A stretch of DNA of 39,989 nucleotides from a bacterium (GCA_041559575.1 JBFFDD010000002.1:1-39989); one strand, 5' to 3'. Positions 14,065 to 39,746 are shown, counted from the first letter of the stretch. Notes: generated by a model not told the origin, from the sequence alone. Made by a program: numbers and translations.

Positions 14065-15204
14065 TCAGAACCGGTTCAGGACCTCCAGGAGCCGGTCCAT
14101 CTCCTCGGCCGTATTGAACAGATGGGCGGAGACTCGCAATTTTCCCTTGCGCAAGCCGACATCGATCCCTTCCACCCGAAGCTTCTCGAAAATCTCCCTG
14201 TTCCGTGCCGGTTCGCGGTGGGTCAGGATCACCAGGGTGGAGCGGCCGGGCCCCCTCTCGGGGCTGACCAGGCTGTAAAGGCCCCGGTCCACCCCGGCGA
14301 TCAGGCGGTCCACCAGCCCCTGGTTGTGGGATGCGATCCTGTCGATACCGGTCTCCAGGAGATATTCCACCGCGGCCGTCCAGGGGTAAAAGTTGAGGAA
14401 ATTTGCCGTACCGAAGACATCATACCTGCTGGCGCCCGGATCCTCTCTGAAGGTCAGATCAGCATTTTCCTTCAGGAGATAATCCTTTTTCAACTCCGTT
14501 GCCCAGTAGGCGTGGTTGTAATGAAGGGTGTCCAGGAGTTTCGGGCGGACCCAGGCGAAACCTGTCCCGTAGGGTCCGCAGAGCCACTTGTAGCCCACGC
14601 AGGTCATGGCGTCCACGGGAACAGCGGTCAGATCCAGCGACCGGGCGCCCAGGGCGTGTGAGCCGTTGAGGACGAACACGACCCCCTGTGTGGCGCAGAC
14701 CTCCCCCAGGGACAGGGGATCGGCCGTAAACCCCGAAAAGGAGTGCACCCAGCTGGTACAGAACAGCCTGGTAGACGGCGTCAGGCATGCCCTCAGCTCG
14801 TCGGCGTCGGGCAGGGTATTCTTCGGCTCCATGTACCGGATCCGGACACCTTTTTGCTCCAGTGCCAGCCAGGGGAGGATATCGGTGGGGAAATCCCCTT
14901 TGACCAGGAGGATCTCGTCTCCCTCCCGCCACGGGATGCCGTTGGCCAGCAGGTGGATCCCGTAGGTAGCGCTGTTGCCGAGGATCACCTGTTCGGCCGC
15001 TACGCCGATGAGCCTTCCCAGGGCCTGCCGCAGCCGGCGGGGTACCCGGCGGAACAGGTCGAGGGTCATCAGATGAGGCGAGACCTTCCAGGCGATGGCC
15101 TCCGTCGCCCGCTCGGCGGCCACCCTGGGAAGGGGCCCCTGTTGAGCGCTGTTCAACCACACCCTCCCCTGAAAGGGCCCGAAGTCCTTCGAGTAATCGG
15201 CCAT
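14065..15204 (-). CDS. aminotransferase class V-fold PLP-dependent enzyme (cysteine desulfurase/kynureninase-like)
   Basis: About 379 aa with a candidate PLP-lysine region CVGYKWLCGPYGTG. Start at ATG 15204 (MADYSKDF) is preceded by GGAGAC. Confidence 0.75.
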   Translation of the reverse strand: MADYSKDFGPFQGRVWLNSAQQGPLPRVAAERATEAIAWKVSPHLMTLDLFRRVPRRLRQALGRLIGVAAEQVILGNSATYGIHLLANGIPWREGDEILLVKGDFPTDILPWLALEQKGVRIRYMEPKNTLPDADELRACLTPSTRLFCTSWVHSFSGFTADPLSLGEVCATQGVVFVLNGSHALGARSLDLTAVPVDAMTCVGYKWLCGPYGTGFAWVRPKLLDTLHYNHAYWATELKKDYLLKENADLTFREDPGASRYDVFGTANFLNFYPWTAAVEYLLETGIDRIASHNQGLVDRLIAGVDRGLYSLVSPERGPGRSTLVILTHREPARNREIFEKLRVEGIDVGLRKGKLRVSAHLFNTAEEMDRLLEVLNRF

Positions 15205-15442
15205 GGGGACGTCTCCAATTTCGCGCAAAGGTCAGGGCTGGGGATAGGTGCAGAAATATATGCGTTTCCCCTTTGACCTTCGCAAAAATGTTTGGTCGAA
15301 TATACCACGCCTGATCGCCACCACCTACTCAACTTCCCTGGGCATCGGTCGGTAAATGTTTGGTGATGGATAAAGAATTATTACCAGGCAAAGACTATTT
15401 TGTATCGTTTTGGATTCCTCTCGCCAGGGAGGGGCACGGGGC

Positions 15443-27603: not shown

Positions 27604-28542
27604 CTACAGAGTGGCGGAGATCCCTTCCGCACCGCCCTCCCAGACGGGATGCAGGGTGATCCGGTCACCGCCGTCCTCCTCGAGGCAAACCAGTTCCCAG
27701 CGGTCCGGGTGCTTTAGCACCTCCTGCATGAGCAGTCGGTTAATGGCGTGGCCGGCTTTGTAACCCTCGTAGTGGCCGAGGATGGGGATTCCCAGAAGGG
27801 CCAGATCGCCGATCGTATCCAGGATCTTGTGCCGAACGAACTCGTCGGGGGCCCTCAGGCCACCCTCGTTCATCACGCCCTCGTCTCCGACGACGACAGC
27901 GTTATCAAGGGACCCGCCCATGGCCAGGCCCTGCTCCCTGAGTTTTTCGACATCCCGGTAGAACCCGAAGGTCCGGGCGTATGAGATATCTTTCCGGTAG
28001 GCCTCGGGGGAATAGCGGAAATCGAGCTCCTGCACTCCCACGGCCGGATGATCGAATTCTATGGCGAAGGAGATCCTGAAGGTGTCCGATGGGCTCAGGG
28101 AGGCTCTGGCGTCTCCATTGCCGGCGCCGATCTCCTCCTTGATGCGAAGCATCCTCTTGGGAAGGCCCTGATCAACCAGCCCGACGATCTCGATCCCCCG
28201 CACGAAGGGAGCGGCGCTGCCGTCCATTATAGGTATCTCATCACCCTCGACCTCAATGATCGCGTTGTCCACACCGGACCCTGCCATGGCGGACAGGAGG
28301 TGTTCCACCGTCTTGACCGCGGCACCGTTCAAACCGAGGCTGGTGGCCAGAAGGGTATCGCTGATGTTGTGAACACTGGCCTCAACTTCGGGAGCGCCGG
28401 GCACATCGAGGCGCCGGAAACGGTAACCCGAATCGGGTGTTCCGGGCATGATCCGCACGGAGGTCTCGGCACCTGTGTGCAGTGCCGTGCCGGCGAATTC
28501 CATGCTGCCCCTCAGGGTCTTCTGTTGGACAAAATCGTTCAT
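27604..28542 (-). CDS. lpxC: UDP-3-O-acyl-N-acetylglucosamine deacetylase
   Basis: QKTL...GTALHTG N-terminus, KTVEHLLSAMAG, and FVRHKILDTIGDLAL (zinc/active-site His-Asp context). Start placed at ATG 28542 by analogy with the E. coli N-terminus; no SD is visible. Confidence 0.9.
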   Translation of the reverse strand: MNDFVQQKTLRGSMEFAGTALHTGAETSVRIMPGTPDSGYRFRRLDVPGAPEVEASVHNISDTLLATSLGLNGAAVKTVEHLLSAMAGSGVDNAIIEVEGDEIPIMDGSAAPFVRGIEIVGLVDQGLPKRMLRIKEEIGAGNGDARASLSPSDTFRISFAIEFDHPAVGVQELDFRYSPEAYRKDISYARTFGFYRDVEKLREQGLAMGGSLDNAVVVGDEGVMNEGGLRAPDEFVRHKILDTIGDLALLGIPILGHYEGYKAGHAINRLLMQEVLKHPDRWELVCLEEDGGDRITLHPVWEGGAEGISATL

Positions 28543-28558
28543 ATCGAGGTTGGATATG

Positions 28559-28574
28559 GCAACATTTGTGCCAA
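28559..28574 (-). promoter_or_regulatory. sigma-54 (-24/-12) consensus match TGGCAC-N5-TTGC
   Basis: The minus strand reads TTTGGCACAAATGTTGCCAT. TTGC ends 16 nt before the lpxC ATG. Single-site pattern match only. Confidence 0.3.
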
Positions 28575-28725
28575 ATCGGACAGAAAGGTACAAATAATAA
28601 TTTTTACTTAATTTACAGTGATTTACATTGCATTACGGGCGGAATTGGAGGGAAGGCAGCGGCGGTGCAGCGGCAAGTGTGCCATAATTGCAACACAGGG
28701 TGTGTCAAATATGCGACAACTCTTG

Positions 28726-29322
28726 CTAGGAACGGGCGCGGTCGATGGCGTTGAACAGTCCCAGCAGTACGCCCATGGCCAGGAAGGCCCCGGGGGGAAG
28801 GATCATGACCAGCATGTCTGTGTAACCCTCAGCCATGACAGGGTAGCCGAGCACCGTTCCGCTTCCCAGAATCTCACGCACGGCCCCGATCACACCAAGA
28901 GCCAGGGTAAATCCGACACCCATACCGAAGCCGTCCACGATGGACCGGAAGATGGGGTGCCTGGACGCGAAGGCCTCGGACCGTCCGAGGATCAGGCAGT
29001 TGACAACGATGAGGGGGATGAAGAGGCCCAGTGTCTTGTGCATCTGATGGGCCCACGCGTTCATGGTCAGATCCACTATGGTAACGAAGGACGCGATGAC
29101 GATGATGAAGGAAGGGATCCGGACCTTGCTGGGGATCACGTTCCGGAGGCTCGAAACAACCGTGTTGGAACATACCAGCACGAAGGTGCTGGCCAGCCCC
29201 ATGGCAAAGCCGTTGATCACGCTGTTGGTGACCGCCAGCGCCGGGCAGAGCCCGAGAACCATCCGGAAAACCGGATTTTCAAGCCATAACCCTTTGTTGA
29301 ATTCACGTCCGTACCCGCTCAT
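28726..29322 (-). CDS. rnfE: Rnf electron transport complex subunit E
   Basis: GLWLENPVFRMVLGLCPALAVT, VRIPSFIIVIAS, GRSEAFA, VREILGSGT and LPPGAF parallel E. coli RsxE rather than RsxA. Its start overlaps the rnfG stop (TGATG). Confidence 0.85.
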   Translation of the reverse strand: MSGYGREFNKGLWLENPVFRMVLGLCPALAVTNSVINGFAMGLASTFVLVCSNTVVSSLRNVIPSKVRIPSFIIVIASFVTIVDLTMNAWAHQMHKTLGLFIPLIVVNCLILGRSEAFASRHPIFRSIVDGFGMGVGFTLALGVIGAVREILGSGTVLGYPVMAEGYTDMLVMILPPGAFLAMGVLLGLFNAIDRARS

Positions 29323-29909
29323 CAGACTCCCTCTCCAGCAGCCAGAACTGTTTCCCGGTTCGTCTCGAACCACTTCAGGCCTCGCTCAACAGCTGCTGAC
29401 ACGGCACGAGGTGAGATGGTGGCACCGGTTATCTGGTCGATATCACCGCCGTCCTTCTTCACCTTGAAGTTCGTGTTGTCCAGGGAACGGCCCTTGAAGA
29501 TCGATTTCCATTCCTCGTCGGCAATCAGCGACCCCAGGCCGGGCGTCTCCGCGTGACTGAGGATCTCGATCCCGCCCAGGGTCCCGTCGGGCAAAACACC
29601 CATCATGACGTAGATGTTGCCGCTGTACCCATCCGGGGCTATGACCTGAAAAGCCACGCCCACGACACCCTCCTCACCCGTGGACCGGAAAACCCGATAA
29701 TCCTGATCTTTCTCGCCGGGCAGATCGATAAAGTCGTTGTCCGGATCGATGGGCATCCCGGGGAGGACCGCATCCAGGGACCGGATCACCTCCAGTTTTT
29801 TCTGGTAGGCGATGGGCTCCTTGGTGACCTCGTAGACCATGGCCAGGGCAAAGGCCGCTCCGGCACAGATGACGGCCAAAACAACAATGAGACGTCCCAT
29901 TCCCTTCAT
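29322..29909 (-). CDS. rnfG: Rnf electron transport complex subunit G (FMN-binding)
   Basis: N-terminal TM anchor and FMN-attachment context DQITGATISPRAV. ATGA overlap with rnfD. Confidence 0.85.
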   Translation of the reverse strand: MKGMGRLIVVLAVICAGAAFALAMVYEVTKEPIAYQKKLEVIRSLDAVLPGMPIDPDNDFIDLPGEKDQDYRVFRSTGEEGVVGVAFQVIAPDGYSGNIYVMMGVLPDGTLGGIEILSHAETPGLGSLIADEEWKSIFKGRSLDNTNFKVKKDGGDIDQITGATISPRAVSAAVERGLKWFETNRETVLAAGEGV

Positions 29910-30910
29910 TGTGTCCTGGCCTCCTTCCCCTTCAACGTCCCAAACACACGGGGCCGGGTGTATCGATCGATAATGGGTGTCGCCGCGTTCATGAGCAGGA
30001 TGGCGAAGGAAACCCCTTCAGGATATCCGCCGAAAAGACGTATGAAGACCGTTATCAGTCCACAACCGACCCCGAAAAGGATCATGCCCTTATTGGTCAC
30101 CGGAGTGGTGACGTAGTCCGTGGCCATGAAAAACGCCCCTAACATCAACCCACCGGTCACCAGGTGGAACACCGGGGAGGCATATTTCTGGGGATTGATC
30201 AACCAGTAGGCCCCCGTCATGGCAAATACGGTAGCGATATAGGTGACGGGAATGTGCCAGGTGATGATCCCCCTCCAGATGAGGAAACCGCCCCCGGCGA
30301 CCAGGGCGAGGGCCGAGATCTCGCCGAGACAGCCGCCCATCATCCTGCCGAGGAGAGGGTCCATGAGGTTGTAGTTGGCGATATCCCCGATGGTCCCGGT
30401 GAGGAGAAGATTGGTCTTCATCTCCCCTAACGGTGTGGCCTTCGTCACGGTGTCCAGAGCCAGGGGAAAGACCTTGGGTTCCGGCCAGCTGGTCATGGCC
30501 ACCGGAAAACTTATCAGGAGGAACACCCTCGCCACCAGGGCCGGGTTGAAGGGGTTGTATCCCAGCCCACCGTAGACCTGTTTGCTCAGCAGGATGGCCA
30601 CCACCGCTCCGATCAAAATCATCCACCCGGGAGACGAGGAAGGCAGGTTCATGGCCAGGAGAAGTCCGGTGAGAACCGCGCTACCGTCCTTCAGGGCCTC
30701 AAAATCCCTTCCCCTCATCTTCAGAGCCAGCGCCTCGAAAACCAGACAGCCGATGACCGAGATGGCGATGACCCGGATAGCGTTGAGGCCGAAGAAATAG
30801 ACACCTACCGCCGTTCCCGGCAGAAGGGCAAGGAGAACCGTGTACATGGCCGTTTCGATGGTCTGCGATGACCGCAGGTGAGGCGATGGGGTCAGGACTG
30901 GTGATGTCAT
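29906..30910 (-). CDS. rnfD: Rnf electron transport complex subunit D
   Basis: Polytopic NqrB/RnfD-like protein. Start set at ATG 30910 (MTSPVLTPSPHLRS), overlapping the rnfC stop (TGATG). Confidence 0.85.
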   Translation of the reverse strand: MTSPVLTPSPHLRSSQTIETAMYTVLLALLPGTAVGVYFFGLNAIRVIAISVIGCLVFEALALKMRGRDFEALKDGSAVLTGLLLAMNLPSSSPGWMILIGAVVAILLSKQVYGGLGYNPFNPALVARVFLLISFPVAMTSWPEPKVFPLALDTVTKATPLGEMKTNLLLTGTIGDIANYNLMDPLLGRMMGGCLGEISALALVAGGGFLIWRGIITWHIPVTYIATVFAMTGAYWLINPQKYASPVFHLVTGGLMLGAFFMATDYVTTPVTNKGMILFGVGCGLITVFIRLFGGYPEGVSFAILLMNAATPIIDRYTRPRVFGTLKGKEARTQ

Positions 30911-32220
30911 CAGCTTCGGTTCCTCGCGACCAATTCGGCCTTGCCCTGCCTGATCCATTGAACCAGGTTCCGGTCAGCGGGACAGACGTAAGTGCAGCAG
31001 CCGCATTCGATGCAATCGTTGATGTGAAACTCAGGCAGGCCGTCGAAAAGATCCCACTCCACCATTGCGCCGAGGGTATGGGGCATCAGGGAGGCCGGGC
31101 AGCCGCGGACACAGGCCCCGCATCGGATACAGGCCCTCGATTTGAGCTCCCGGAAATCCCCCGGTCCGAAAAGGAGCAGCCCGCTGGTCCCCTTGGTCAC
31201 CGTGCTCTCGAGGCTCGCCAGGGCCGTCCCCATCATCGGGCCGCCATTGATGATCCGGGCAGCCGGACCTGTCATCCCACCCGTGTTTTCCACAATATGG
31301 GACAGGGGGGTACCGACAGCCACCCGGTAGTTTCCCGGACCCTTGGAAAGGGTTCCTCCCAGGGTCATCACCCGCTCGACAAAGGGCCGGCCGAGGGTTA
31401 TCGCTTCGTGGATGGCCGCCAGCGTACCCACGTTCTGCACCACCACCCCTACATCCATGGGAAGTCCTCCCGAGGGGACTTCCCTGCCGGTAAGGGCGTA
31501 GATCAGCTGTTTTTCTGCTCCCTGAGGGTACATGACCGGCAGGACGGAGACCTCGAAACCCTCAGGCAGGTCCATGGACCGCATCCTGTCCACCGCGTCG
31601 GGCTTATTGGCCTCAATACCCACAACGGCCTTTTCCGCCCCCACCATCCGCAGGGCAAGGCGCAGACCGCTCAGGATGGACTCCGGATCCTCCAGCATGA
31701 GGCGGTGGTCCGCTGTCAGGAAGGGTTCGCACTCCACTCCGTTGGCAACCACCATGTCTATGGGTTTGTCCTCGGGGGGGTTGAGTTTGACATGGGTGGG
31801 GAAGGCAGCGCCACCCATCCCGACGATTCCCGCCTCACCGACCATCTTCTTCCATGCTTCCGGTCCTTTGGTCAGTTCCGGATCAGCGTTCGAGAGGGTG
31901 TCGAGGGCCTCATCCTCCCCATCGGGCTCGATCACCACCGCAGGGATGAACCGGCCCGTGGTGTGAATGGAAGGTTCGATGGCCTTGACGGTTCCGGAGG
32001 TCGGTGAGTGGATCGGCGCAGAGACATAACCGGAGGCCTCGGCTACCACCTGGTACTTCAGGACCCGGTCCCCTGCCGAAACGATCGGCTTGGCCGGCGC
32101 GCCGATATGCTGCGATAAGCTCAGCCGAATTTCACCGGGGAGGGGAAGCTCCTGGATGCCGGCTTCCCTGGTGTCCTTGTGATCATGGGGGTGCACCCCC
32201 CCGACAAACATTCTCTTCAC
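30910..32220 (-). CDS. rnfC: Rnf electron transport complex subunit C
   Basis: GGVHP N-terminal motif. Two ferredoxin motifs, CIRCGACVRGCP and CIECGCCTYVCP. GTG start with GAGGA 6 nt upstream. Confidence 0.9.
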   Translation of the reverse strand: MKRMFVGGVHPHDHKDTREAGIQELPLPGEIRLSLSQHIGAPAKPIVSAGDRVLKYQVVAEASGYVSAPIHSPTSGTVKAIEPSIHTTGRFIPAVVIEPDGEDEALDTLSNADPELTKGPEAWKKMVGEAGIVGMGGAAFPTHVKLNPPEDKPIDMVVANGVECEPFLTADHRLMLEDPESILSGLRLALRMVGAEKAVVGIEANKPDAVDRMRSMDLPEGFEVSVLPVMYPQGAEKQLIYALTGREVPSGGLPMDVGVVVQNVGTLAAIHEAITLGRPFVERVMTLGGTLSKGPGNYRVAVGTPLSHIVENTGGMTGPAARIINGGPMMGTALASLESTVTKGTSGLLLFGPGDFRELKSRACIRCGACVRGCPASLMPHTLGAMVEWDLFDGLPEFHINDCIECGCCTYVCPADRNLVQWIRQGKAELVARNRS

Positions 32221-34733: not shown

Positions 34734-35156
34734 TCACTCATCGATCTTCTCTACGCGCCTTTCGTGTCTTCCGCCCTCGAAGGATGAATCAAGCCATGCG
34801 TCAACGATCTCCCTGGCCAGATCCGGTCCCAGGACTCTCCCCCCGAGGACCAGGACGTTGGCGTTGTTGTGGCGCCGAGAGGCCGAGGCGGTAAAGTGGT
34901 CGTGACATAAAGCCGCCCTCACTCCCCGATACCGGTTCGCCACCATGGACATACCCAGCCCGGTCCCGCAGACCAGGATACCCAATTCCATCTCCCCATC
35001 GGCGATTGCCACAGCGACTTTTCTGGCGAAGTCGGTGTAATCCACCGAATCGGTAGAGTCGGTGCCAAGGTCGACCGTTCTGATTCCTCTTCCCGAGAGG
35101 TGCTCTTTGACCATCTCCTTGAGGGGAAAACCGGCGTGGTCCGAGGCCAGGGCCAC
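34734..35156 (-). CDS. rpiB: ribose-5-phosphate isomerase B
   Basis: [10 protein letters not shown]-terminal motif and [13 protein letters not shown]. There is no ATG near the conserved N-terminus, so GTG at 35156 is proposed. The start is uncertain. Confidence 0.8.
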
Positions 35157-35175
35157 CCGGAATCTGGTTTGTCGG

Positions 35176-35646
35176 CTAGAGTTCACTCTTGTCAACCATT
35201 GCCTCGTGGCAGTAGGCGCAGAACCTCCCCAGGACCTTGCCGCCATCGGTGGCGATCCGCAGGTATTTTGCGTTGGTGTTGGAGGGATGGGGATCGTGGC
35301 AGCTGGTACAGGTCAAAAGACCCCCGTCACTGAGAACCTCGGCCGGAACGTTGGCTTTGACCGGCTTCAATCCCACCGGATGGCTTTTCATGAAGTGGAT
35401 GGGGGCGATCCCTTCATCCTCGTTGTGGCAGCCGAGACAGAGGGAATCCACACCTGCCGCCGGGGCACCTGAGTGCTTGTACTTTTCGGAGGTGTTCGGC
35501 ATGATTCCAAAAGCCGGATCGGCCTTCGTGTCATGAAGGCTGTGGCATTCGGTACAGTTATTGTCGTGGGGGCCGGCCGCCTGGGAAACGAACGGCAGAC
35601 CGATGAACACTACAGCGCAGATCACGATACAGGCTTTTTTCATCAC
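35176..35646 (-). CDS. tetrahaem c-type cytochrome, exported
   Basis: Four CxxCH sites (CTECH, CLGCH, CTSCH, CAYCH) in 156 aa. Signal peptide [25 protein letters not shown]. Confidence 0.85.
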
Positions 35647-37935: not shown

Positions 37936-38856
37936 GTGAGAACCTTTGTGATCGTTCTGCTGATCTTGGCCTGGTTAACTCCGGCCCAGGCAGCCTGGGA
38001 TTTTTCCAGACACAGCATCCCCATTGAGGATATTCTTTCTGGCGGCCCGCCGAAGGACGGGATACCCGCCCTGGTCAAACCGGCCTTCATCACTGCCGGG
38101 GCTGCCGGCAGACTTCTGTCGGCCGACGACAGGGTCATCGGGGTCCGCCTCGGAGACACGGTCAAGGCCTACCCCATTCGGATCCTCAACCACCACGAAC
38201 TGGTCAACGACAGAGCTGGGGAACGTTCCATTCTGGTGAGCTGGTGACCCCTGTCCGGAGCGGGCGTCGTGTACGCCCGGCAAGCGGGTGGCAGAACTCT
38301 TACCTTCGGGGTGTCTGGCCTCCTCTACAGGGCCAACGTGCTGATGTACGATCACCAGACGGAATCCCTTTGGTCCCAGGTCAAAAGGTCAGCGGTCACC
38401 GGATCTTTTACCGGGACGAAACTGGAGGTGCTCCCCTCCGTTCTGACGACCTGGGGCAAGTGGCGCAAACGTTATCCTCAGACCCTCGTCCTGTCCTTTG
38501 ACACCGGATACAGGAGGAATTACGACCGGGATCCCTATGAATCCTACCGACGAAACCGCGGCACTTGGAGCGGTTTTCTGTCCTCTTTCATCGGACACCG
38601 CCTCAGTGAGGGAGATGTTGCGCTCGTGGCCGGTATCGAACTGGGAGGAAAAAGCCGGGGCTACCGCCTTACGGACCTCCGTGAGAAGGGCAGCATCGTC
38701 GACAGACTCGGAAGTGAGGAGATAAGAGTGTCCTTCGACCCGGCCACCGACAGCGTTTCGGTGACATCATTAACGGGCGAGAAAATTCCCCATGTGCTAA
38801 TATACTGGTTCGTATGGAAGGAGACGCATCCTGAGGCTGATCTGTATCAGCCCTAG
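37936..38856 (+). CDS. DUF3179 domain protein, exported; single in-frame TGA (38245..38247) at the CPLC-motif position - candidate selenoprotein (alternatively a pseudogene)
   Basis: The track ORFs 37936..38247 and 38269..38856 share one reading frame and are separated only by the TGA. The joined translation ...GERSILVSW-U-PLSGAGVVYARQAGGRTLTFGVSGLLYRANVLMYDHQTESLWSQ follows the DUF3179 pattern (KDGIPA..., AYP..., HE.VND, (T)YCPLC, FGVSG, MYD..T.S.W.Q). Signal peptide MRTFVIVLLILAWLTPAQA. GTG start. Confidence 0.6.
38261..38279 (+). promoter_or_regulatory. candidate bacterial SECIS-like hairpin downstream of the in-frame TGA
   Basis: cgggcg (38261..38266) pairs with cgcccg (38274..38279). 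The 7-nt loop ucgugua contains GU. The stem starts 13 nt after the TGA, putting the loop about 20-26 nt downstream. Confidence 0.35.
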
Positions 38857-38960: not shown

Positions 38961-39746
38961 ATGAAGCTCAAGGACAAAGTTGCCATCATCACGGGCGCGG
39001 GAAGGGGTCTGGGACGGGCCGCGGCCGTCGCCATGGCTGAACAGGGGGCGTTAACCGTAATCCTGAGCAGAACACCGTCCGAGCTAACTGATACAGCTGC
39101 GATCATCGAATCTAACGGCAGTAAAACCCTGATGTTTAGGGCTGACGTCTCCCGCCCGGGGGACATCGACGAGGTGGTCAGCGAGACCCTTTCCGTCTTC
39201 GGCAGAATCGACATCCCGATGAACAACGCCGCCATCGTCGGACCGGCGGAACTCATCACCGACATCAATTGGGAGGATTGGGACGAGACCATGGACATCA
39301 ATGTCAAGGGCCCCTATATGTTCAGCGGAGCTGTGGTGCCCCATATGTCCCGTTCCGGAGGAGGGAAGATCATCAACGTGACCTCCGGCCTCGCCGATAT
39401 CATCATGCCCCCTTTCGGCGCCTACTCCATCAGCAAGGCGGCCCTGAACCATATGACCAGGATCCTGGCTGAGGAACTGCAGGCCCACAGCATCCAGGTC
39501 AACGCCATGGATCCGGGGATCATGGACACAGGCATGCAGGACACCATCCGGAGTCTGGGACCGGAGATCCTCGGCGAACATCTCTACGAACAGTTCGTCT
39601 CCTTCAAGGAAGAGGGACACCTGAAGGCACCCGAGGAGATCGCCCAGCTGGCAGTTTTCCTCGCCTCCGGGGATTCGGACTCCATCACCGGGGAGATCGG
39701 TTCCGAGCTGGACTACGGGGGATATGGGTATGGGATGGAGGAATGA
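38961..39746 (+). CDS. SDR family oxidoreductase
   Basis: Cofactor motif TGAGRGLG, NNAA, and catalytic YSISK (YxxxK); 261 aa. Confidence 0.9.
   Translation: MKLKDKVAIITGAGRGLGRAAAVAMAEQGALTVILSRTPSELTDTAAIIESNGSKTLMFRADVSRPGDIDEVVSETLSVFGRIDIPMNNAAIVGPAELITDINWEDWDETMDINVKGPYMFSGAVVPHMSRSGGGKIINVTSGLADIIMPPFGAYSISKAALNHMTRILAEELQAHSIQVNAMDPGIMDTGMQDTIRSLGPEILGEHLYEQFVSFKEEGHLKAPEEIAQLAVFLASGDSDSITGEIGSELDYGGYGYGMEE

Follow-up and report, generated by a model that had tools for sequence, protein, structure and literature searches.

A DUF3179 gene interrupted by an in-frame UGA very probably encodes an exported selenoprotein of an already catalogued family

Proteins with the DUF3179 domain (PF11376) are already listed as a bacterial selenoprotein family with the motif UxxC/T (PMC9312934, 2022; PMC13188914, 2026), and both reviews attribute the entry to the study by Zhang and Gladyshev of the Olavius algarvensis delta-1 symbiont (Zhang and Gladyshev, 2007; PMC1976440). 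Neither review gives the family a signal peptide, a SECIS model, a clade structure or a fold, and in the literature that I searched on DUF3179 and its accession numbers there was no paper addressing what the family does, nor any 75Se labelling or mass spectrometry data on a DUF3179 protein. In this article I describe a DUF3179 gene on a 39,989-nt contig, analysed as a whole and called the window from here on, in which a TGA takes the place of the first cysteine of the family's C-P-L-C motif. An earlier note on this DNA had proposed it as a candidate new selenoprotein and had left open whether DUF3179 already counted as a selenoprotein family; it does, and the gene is an added member of a catalogued family, with no novelty at the family level. 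It shares with the catalogued members the Pfam family, the selenocysteine (Sec) at the first Cys of Cxx(C) and an origin in deltaproteobacterial-type anaerobes, and like them it is a computational prediction built on Cys/Sec pairs and a downstream stem-loop. Its motif is UxxS and not the catalogued UxxC/T, but the position of Sec is identical, so this is a variant of the motif and not a different family.

Three further groups of known systems invite comparison. The SECIS element of Escherichia coli fdhF also follows an in-frame UGA with a C next to it, lies in the coding region just 3' of that codon, places a G-U in its apical loop about 20 nt from the UGA and constrains the codons that it overlaps; the minimal fdhF element begins 11 nt after the UGA and the stem described here 13 nt after it. 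However, the hairpin in the window has no evident bulged U, is unrelated in sequence and has no Rfam match, and it is a putative SelB site. The periplasmic selenoenzymes, formate dehydrogenase (FdnG/FdhA) and [NiFeSe] hydrogenase, are likewise Sec proteins that work outside the cytoplasm of anaerobes, but they are cofactor-loaded and exported in folded form through Tat, with Sec ligating Mo/W or Ni, whereas the signal peptide of the window protein is of the plain Sec-pathway type and lacks a twin arginine, and no cofactor motif was recognised in the protein. Finally, UxxS/CxxS arrangements are found in an arsenate reductase, a form of rhodanese and peroxiredoxin-like AhpC/TSA proteins (PMC13188914), and these resemble the window protein in having a single Sec with a Ser three residues on in place of a resolving Cys, which suggests single-selenol chemistry. 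The earlier note had drawn this analogy with thiol oxidoreductases, and the likeness is one of motif only: those proteins have thioredoxin-like, rhodanese or ArsC folds, while the DUF3179 model is mostly beta, has no solved relative and carries the motif in a loop between strands.

Table 1. Features of the DUF3179 locus in the window (positions counted from the first nucleotide of the contig).
Feature	Position	Strand	Details
Selenoprotein gene (complete)	37936..38856	+	GTG start; 306 sense codons including UGA-Sec codon 104; TAG stop 38854-38856; encodes DUF3179 preprotein
Sec-pathway signal peptide MRTFVIVLLILAWLTPAQA	37936..37992	+	Predicted cleavage after A-Q-A (residue 19); window junction MRTFVIVLLILAWLTPAQA then AWDF
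DUF3179 domain	38053..38766	+	Pfam hmmscan, protein residues 40-277
UGA = selenocysteine (predicted), residue 104	38245..38247	+	First Cys of CPLC; local motif W-U-P-L-S
SECIS-like hairpin	38261..38279	+	7-bp stem 38261-38267 (CGGGCGU) : 38273-38279 (ACGCCCG); loop 38268-38272 (CGUGU)
SDR-family oxidoreductase gene	38961..39746	+	104 nt after the selenoprotein gene, same strand; SDR downstream in 16 Sec-clade loci

The gene (Table 1) is one frame of 307 codons when the terminal TAG is counted, and the TGA is its sole internal stop. In the list of open reading frames it appears as two same-frame pieces, 37936..38247 (103 aa) and 38269..38856 (195 aa), each with a GTG start, and the claim that only the TGA parts them, leaving a single 306-codon frame, was confirmed; around the TGA the translation reads ERSILVSW, the stop, and then PLSGAGVVYARQA. 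The read-through product had been described as a full-length DUF3179-like protein conserved on both sides of the break, and this is what the Pfam search returned, with a match to PF11376 (E=4.1e-76) that scores 256.7 bits against a gathering cut-off of 27 bits, runs over profile positions 1-234 of 292 and covers both sides of the TGA. An alignment of 111 sequences shows that residues invariant in DUF3179 are kept in the window protein on either side, among others H87, E88, N91, D92, P105, L106, the FGVSG block (F124-G128), the SLWSQ block (S144-Q148), W176, T190 and G191. The TGA itself falls, as the earlier note had proposed, on the near-invariant first Cys of C-P-L-C, both in an alignment of 20 sequences (the window and 19 homologues) and in that of 111 (the window and 110), with Cys in at least 90% of members and the following Pro and Leu invariant in both. 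One side observation within the coding region is a terminator-like hairpin (CCCAGGCAGCCTGGG then ATTTTT) at 37985..37999 on the plus strand, at the predicted signal-peptide cleavage site; the region holds 2 such sites against 2.2 expected by chance, and this one is probably fortuitous. Furthermore, DUF3179 Sec genes are called as two "DUF3179" fragments in every public assembly, including those of about 40 relatives (103 and 195 aa in the window; 100 and 197 aa at L001:301-603 and L001:625-1218 in the metagenome orthologue L001), and for want of a family model in NCBIfam, annotation pipelines divide them and cannot flag the Sec codon.

Could the organism simply read TGA as an amino acid throughout? 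TGA ends 15 of the 30 other confidently annotated genes in the window, where it is a normal stop; an altered genetic code was therefore rejected in favour of the standard one, under which the TGA at codon 104 needs site-specific recoding.

The TGA is also far from private to this contig. It is present in three further metagenome assemblies of the same population (L002, L003 and L005), and since L002 differs from the window by a synonymous SNP two codons upstream of the TGA, the assemblies that carry it are not mere copies of one sequence or of one assembly error; in an unrelated ENA metagenome, the 71%-identical orthologue L001 has a TGA at the same codon, followed by 35 nt that are almost identical. 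When 160 related loci were collected from species-representative genomes and metagenomes and the codon at the TGA column was read in each, the 163 readable loci gave 52 TGA, 69 TGC and 42 TGT, that is, 111 Cys codons, and the 52 TGA loci held 43 distinct 66-nt downstream segments. This bears out the expectation that close relatives would keep the TGA, although "close" is hardly the word for what was found: the roughly 40 distinct TGA orthologues share 49-71% amino acid identity with the window protein at saturated synonymous sites, and the best match to the window gene among GTDB species representatives is 65% identical. By the labels of their metagenome-assembled genomes the carriers include Desulfuromonadaceae, Desulfobulbaceae, Deferrisomatales, Desulfovibrionales, Desulfonatronospira, Thermodesulfobacteriota and unclassified "Proteobacteria", with proteins 49-65% identical to that of the window. 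A neighbour-joining tree places the TGA forms in a single clade with 41 distinct leaves, of which 40 have TGA, and two loci on either side of its boundary deserve mention. The only Cys form nested in this otherwise all-TGA clade (L166:17-931, also L167; protein P0009) has TGC in the motif W-C-P-L-A and keeps six of the seven base pairs of the SECIS-like hairpin. It has the look of a recent reversion from Sec to Cys that left a fossil SECIS behind; such an event is described as rare in bacteria (PMC13188914). Outside the main clade, L157:966 (metagenome contig Ga0233431_1070749) is a TGA form with F-U-P-L-T whose neighbours in the tree are Cys forms with CPLT or CPLC; Cys may have changed to Sec independently in this locus, and its UPLT corresponds to the UxxT of the published DUF3179 motif.

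Selection on the two halves of the gene tells the same story as its distribution. Compared with seven TGA orthologues, the window gene has a dN/dS of 0.15-0.43 before the TGA and 0.14-0.24 after it, at dS values from 0.8 to more than 2 (saturated), and both halves are thus under purifying selection; the relaxed, pseudogene-like evolution that had been looked for downstream of the TGA is absent. This leaves little of the simplest objection, that a TGC or TGT cysteine codon was mutated or misread as TGA and the gene is dead: a single base change would indeed do this, and gene callers do break the gene into pieces of 103 and 195 aa in every public assembly, but the TGA recurs in four independent assemblies of the population, some 40 other distinct orthologues have it too, the most remote at about 50% identity, the downstream frame is intact in all of them at the dN/dS just given, and a conserved, covarying hairpin follows the TGA in TGA forms only, so that the conservation of the codon effectively refutes a pseudogene or a sequencing error.

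The hairpin itself was examined in 43 distinct segments comprising the TGA and the next 54 nt, which align without gaps, columns 17-23 pairing with columns 29-35; in the window the loop G lies 21 nt after the UGA. In this register 93% of cells across the 43 sequences are in standard pairs, four of the seven stem pairs being forced by conserved amino acids, compared with 23-58% when the 3' arm is shifted by 1-3 columns, and none of 500 column shuffles matched either the observed pairing or the covariation score. The most informative pairs are 21-31 (C-G 25, A-U 9, G-U 5, U-A 2) and 22-30 (G-C 38, G-U 3, A-U 2): double changes at these two hairpin pairs account for 18 cells, and their states arise several times on the tree. 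Column 21 falls on the synonymous third position of a Gly codon, and column 31 is the first base of an Ala, Ser or Thr codon four codons on; as the one is silent and the other determines the amino acid, pairing at the RNA level ties a silent site to an amino acid choice. Synonymous sites are frozen as well: all 30 Ala codons at position +5 end in G (0 bits) and 17 of 18 codons at position +10 end in C, where the average over 46 further four-fold codons conserved in these genes is 1.61 +/- 0.32 bits. The loop G and U, and the C-C directly after the UGA (TGA-CC), are invariant across the TGA segments. Cys-form homologues (96 distinct sequences) are only 37% paired in the hairpin register, and their local minimum free energy is -5.5 kcal/mol versus -10.6 kcal/mol for TGA forms (Mann-Whitney p=8e-14) at equal GC. 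When the window sequence after the TGA was folded by itself it did no better than shuffled sequences (z = -0.08 and -0.25), and the support for the hairpin therefore comes from comparison across sequences and not from thermodynamics. Rfam has no match to the hairpin: with gathering thresholds the whole window returned nothing, and with E<=10 the stretch 38150-38400 returned a chance HCV match only; bacterial SECIS elements are gene-specific.

Taken together, the gene is very probably a single one for an exported DUF3179 selenoprotein in which UGA is read as Sec by means of a SECIS-like hairpin, and the earlier proposal of selenocysteine is upheld by the Cys/TGA column, the conservation in orthologues, the covarying hairpin, the purifying selection downstream and the signal peptides found throughout the clade. 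Following the bacterial SECIS/SelB mechanism as summarised in PMC9312934, which the position and form of the hairpin fit, the hairpin would act as a bacterial SECIS during translation and recruit SelB-GTP-Sec-tRNA(Sec) to a ribosome stalled at the weak UGA-C stop, Sec would be inserted as residue 104, and translation would continue to the TAG. The resulting 306-residue preprotein would leave the cytoplasm by the Sec translocon and be cut after Ala19, giving a periplasmic protein of about 287 residues with Sec104 as its only redox- or ligand-active chalcogen.

The best surviving alternative accepts the read-through and dispenses with selenium, residue 104 being an ordinary one that is supplied by a near-cognate or suppressor tRNA (Trp, Cys, Arg), or by SelB delivering Cys when selenium is short. 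UGA-C is the leakiest stop context in bacteria, the apparently reverted L166 indicates that Cys is tolerated at this position, and the Sec machinery is absent from the window and from the flanks that were fetched: the tRNA search found none in the 39,989 nt, no tRNA-Sec turned up in the flanks of 53 related loci, and about 35 ORFs of the window, scanned with Pfam and NCBIfam, included no selA, selB or selD and no other known selenoprotein interrupted by TGA. A class-V aminotransferase at 14065..15228 on the minus strand, weakly like cysteine desulfurases and the selenocysteine lyase SclA (E ~1e-9 to 1e-22), falls below every NCBIfam cut-off and was set aside, as it offers no evidence for selenium metabolism. 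However, with leakage at a few percent, two-thirds of a protein would not have stayed under strong purifying selection through dozens of lineages, and a conserved hairpin at SECIS distance with an invariant loop GU is required for SelB-dependent recoding but not for simple read-through. The clade also sits in Thermodesulfobacteriota-type lineages, which are among the most selenoprotein-rich bacteria (PMC13188914), and it is from the gene itself and from this taxonomy that I infer the Sec-decoding trait of the source organism. I therefore regard read-through without selenium as improbable.

Even less probable is that the TGA is the true stop of a 103-residue secreted protein and that the C-terminal two-thirds is translated separately from the GTG at 38269. 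The window does have an in-frame GTG 8 codons past the TGA, as do 27 of 43 distinct relatives, and public gene calls start there; but what this GTG encodes is just the conserved Val of G-V-V-Y, it is missing from the other 16 of the 43, and no alternative in-frame start after the TGA is conserved. Only the N-terminal half would have a signal peptide and the C-terminal product would lack one, the Pfam domain and a single-chain model (pLDDT 91) are continuous across the break, every Cys-form homologue is one polypeptide, and a split would have to coincide exactly with the most conserved Cys of the family.

Returning to a single exported selenoprotein, the Sec-type signal peptide noted in the window was found in 29 of 29 distinct N-termini of the Sec clade. 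By a rule-based check, with the -3/-1 rule applied by inspection for cleavage sites, each starts with a basic n-region, continues with a hydrophobic core (10-aa Kyte-Doolittle maximum 2.3-3.5) and closes with an AxA-like site just before the conserved mature N-terminus W-D/N-x-x-x-H-S/A-I/V; none of the 29 has a twin arginine or a lipobox, the window peptide likewise lacking a twin arginine and a lipobox Cys, and in the structural models its residues 2-19 form one helix. The DUF3179 proteins of the Sec clade are thus predicted to be secreted through the Sec pathway. The UxxS arrangement that had been pointed out is correct for the window (W-U-P-L-S), in a clade that is otherwise mostly UxxA: among 41 distinct Sec forms the fourth motif residue is Ala in 31, Ser in 9 and Thr in 1, and never Cys, while 98 of 100 distinct Cys-form sequences have CPLC. 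This pattern suggests that the first position of CPLC would be the essential one, and because the second Cys is always replaced in Sec forms, by Ala or Ser and once by Thr, the selenol of the Sec clade most likely works on its own, either as nucleophile or as the one soft ligand, instead of making up one half of a CxxC dithiol pair. One might go further and propose that the W-U-P-L-[S/A] clade is a functionally distinct periplasmic branch of DUF3179 with a single selenol, in which the gain of Sec was coupled to the loss of the second Cys and a dithiol or metal-knuckle site became a lone selenolate nucleophile or ligand; I consider this a tentative idea that is rather more likely to be wrong than right, and if it did hold, L166 would be a rare bacterial Sec-to-Cys reversion caught with its fossil SECIS.

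The AlphaFold model built from 111 sequences is confident (pLDDT 91.2, pTM 0.88), mostly beta and a single chain across the TGA junction, with residue 104 in a loop between strands 97-102 and 111-114. A Foldseek comparison of this model with the PDB gave no match at E<=0.001, the best being Rtt106 PH domains at E=7e-3 and TM<=0.2, with no thioredoxin-fold protein among the top 50, and a sequence-profile search of the PDB with DUF3179 gave no match either. A Rieske-like fold was considered and dropped: the weak matches to Rieske oxygenases (E=0.02, TM<0.2) came from a model made with a shallow alignment (pLDDT 76) and were not strengthened with the pLDDT 91 model. The predicted fold is thus not thioredoxin-like, and the model offers no function that could be transferred from a solved structure.

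Neighbouring genes differ between the two forms in what looks like lineage synteny. Sec-clade loci share, besides the SDR gene of Table 1, a CDF cation-efflux gene (12 loci), NFACT (12) and a 4HBT thioesterase (10), the CDF and 4HBT genes lying on the opposite strand (downstream features at L002 11614-12552 and 12768-13181). Cys-form loci, which are mostly from Nitrospira, have instead a 207-aa ORF (50), Pyr_redox_2 (23), PagL (24) and Crp (21). The conserved ORF of about 207 aa has no Pfam match; in its 50 loci (e.g., L128:1794-2414) it immediately precedes the Cys-form DUF3179 gene and shares its strand, and the pyridine-nucleotide disulfide oxidoreductase lies downstream in its 23; the two may be a functional context for the Cys forms. 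Elsewhere in the window (27604..32220 and 34734..35646, both on the minus strand) there are lpxC and, in a stretch common to the window and L002, RnfC with three Rnf/Nqr-family subunits, and the same common stretch carries nrdR, SHMT, rpiB and a c7-type multihaem cytochrome. The nearest named relatives of the window SHMT are in a Deltaproteobacteria MAG (82%) and "bacterium BMS3Abin14" (80%), with Thermodesulfobacteriota/Geobacteraceae within 72-82%, and the gene set as a whole fits an anaerobic organism of deltaproteobacterial type.

What does one more member mean for a family that is already in the catalogues? What is known of selenocysteine decoding is unchanged by it. It does correct an annotation error, as the Sec genes of DUF3179 are split in every public assembly, and it adds to the catalogued family a clade-wide UxxS/UxxA motif, a SECIS hairpin with covariation and clade-wide predicted signal peptides, together with a confident AlphaFold model that has no solved relative and a nested Cys form, L166, with a remnant of the hairpin. 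A conserved Sec at the key Cys marks residue 104 as the functional centre of the widespread DUF3179 protein, and thereby provides a lead for biochemistry.
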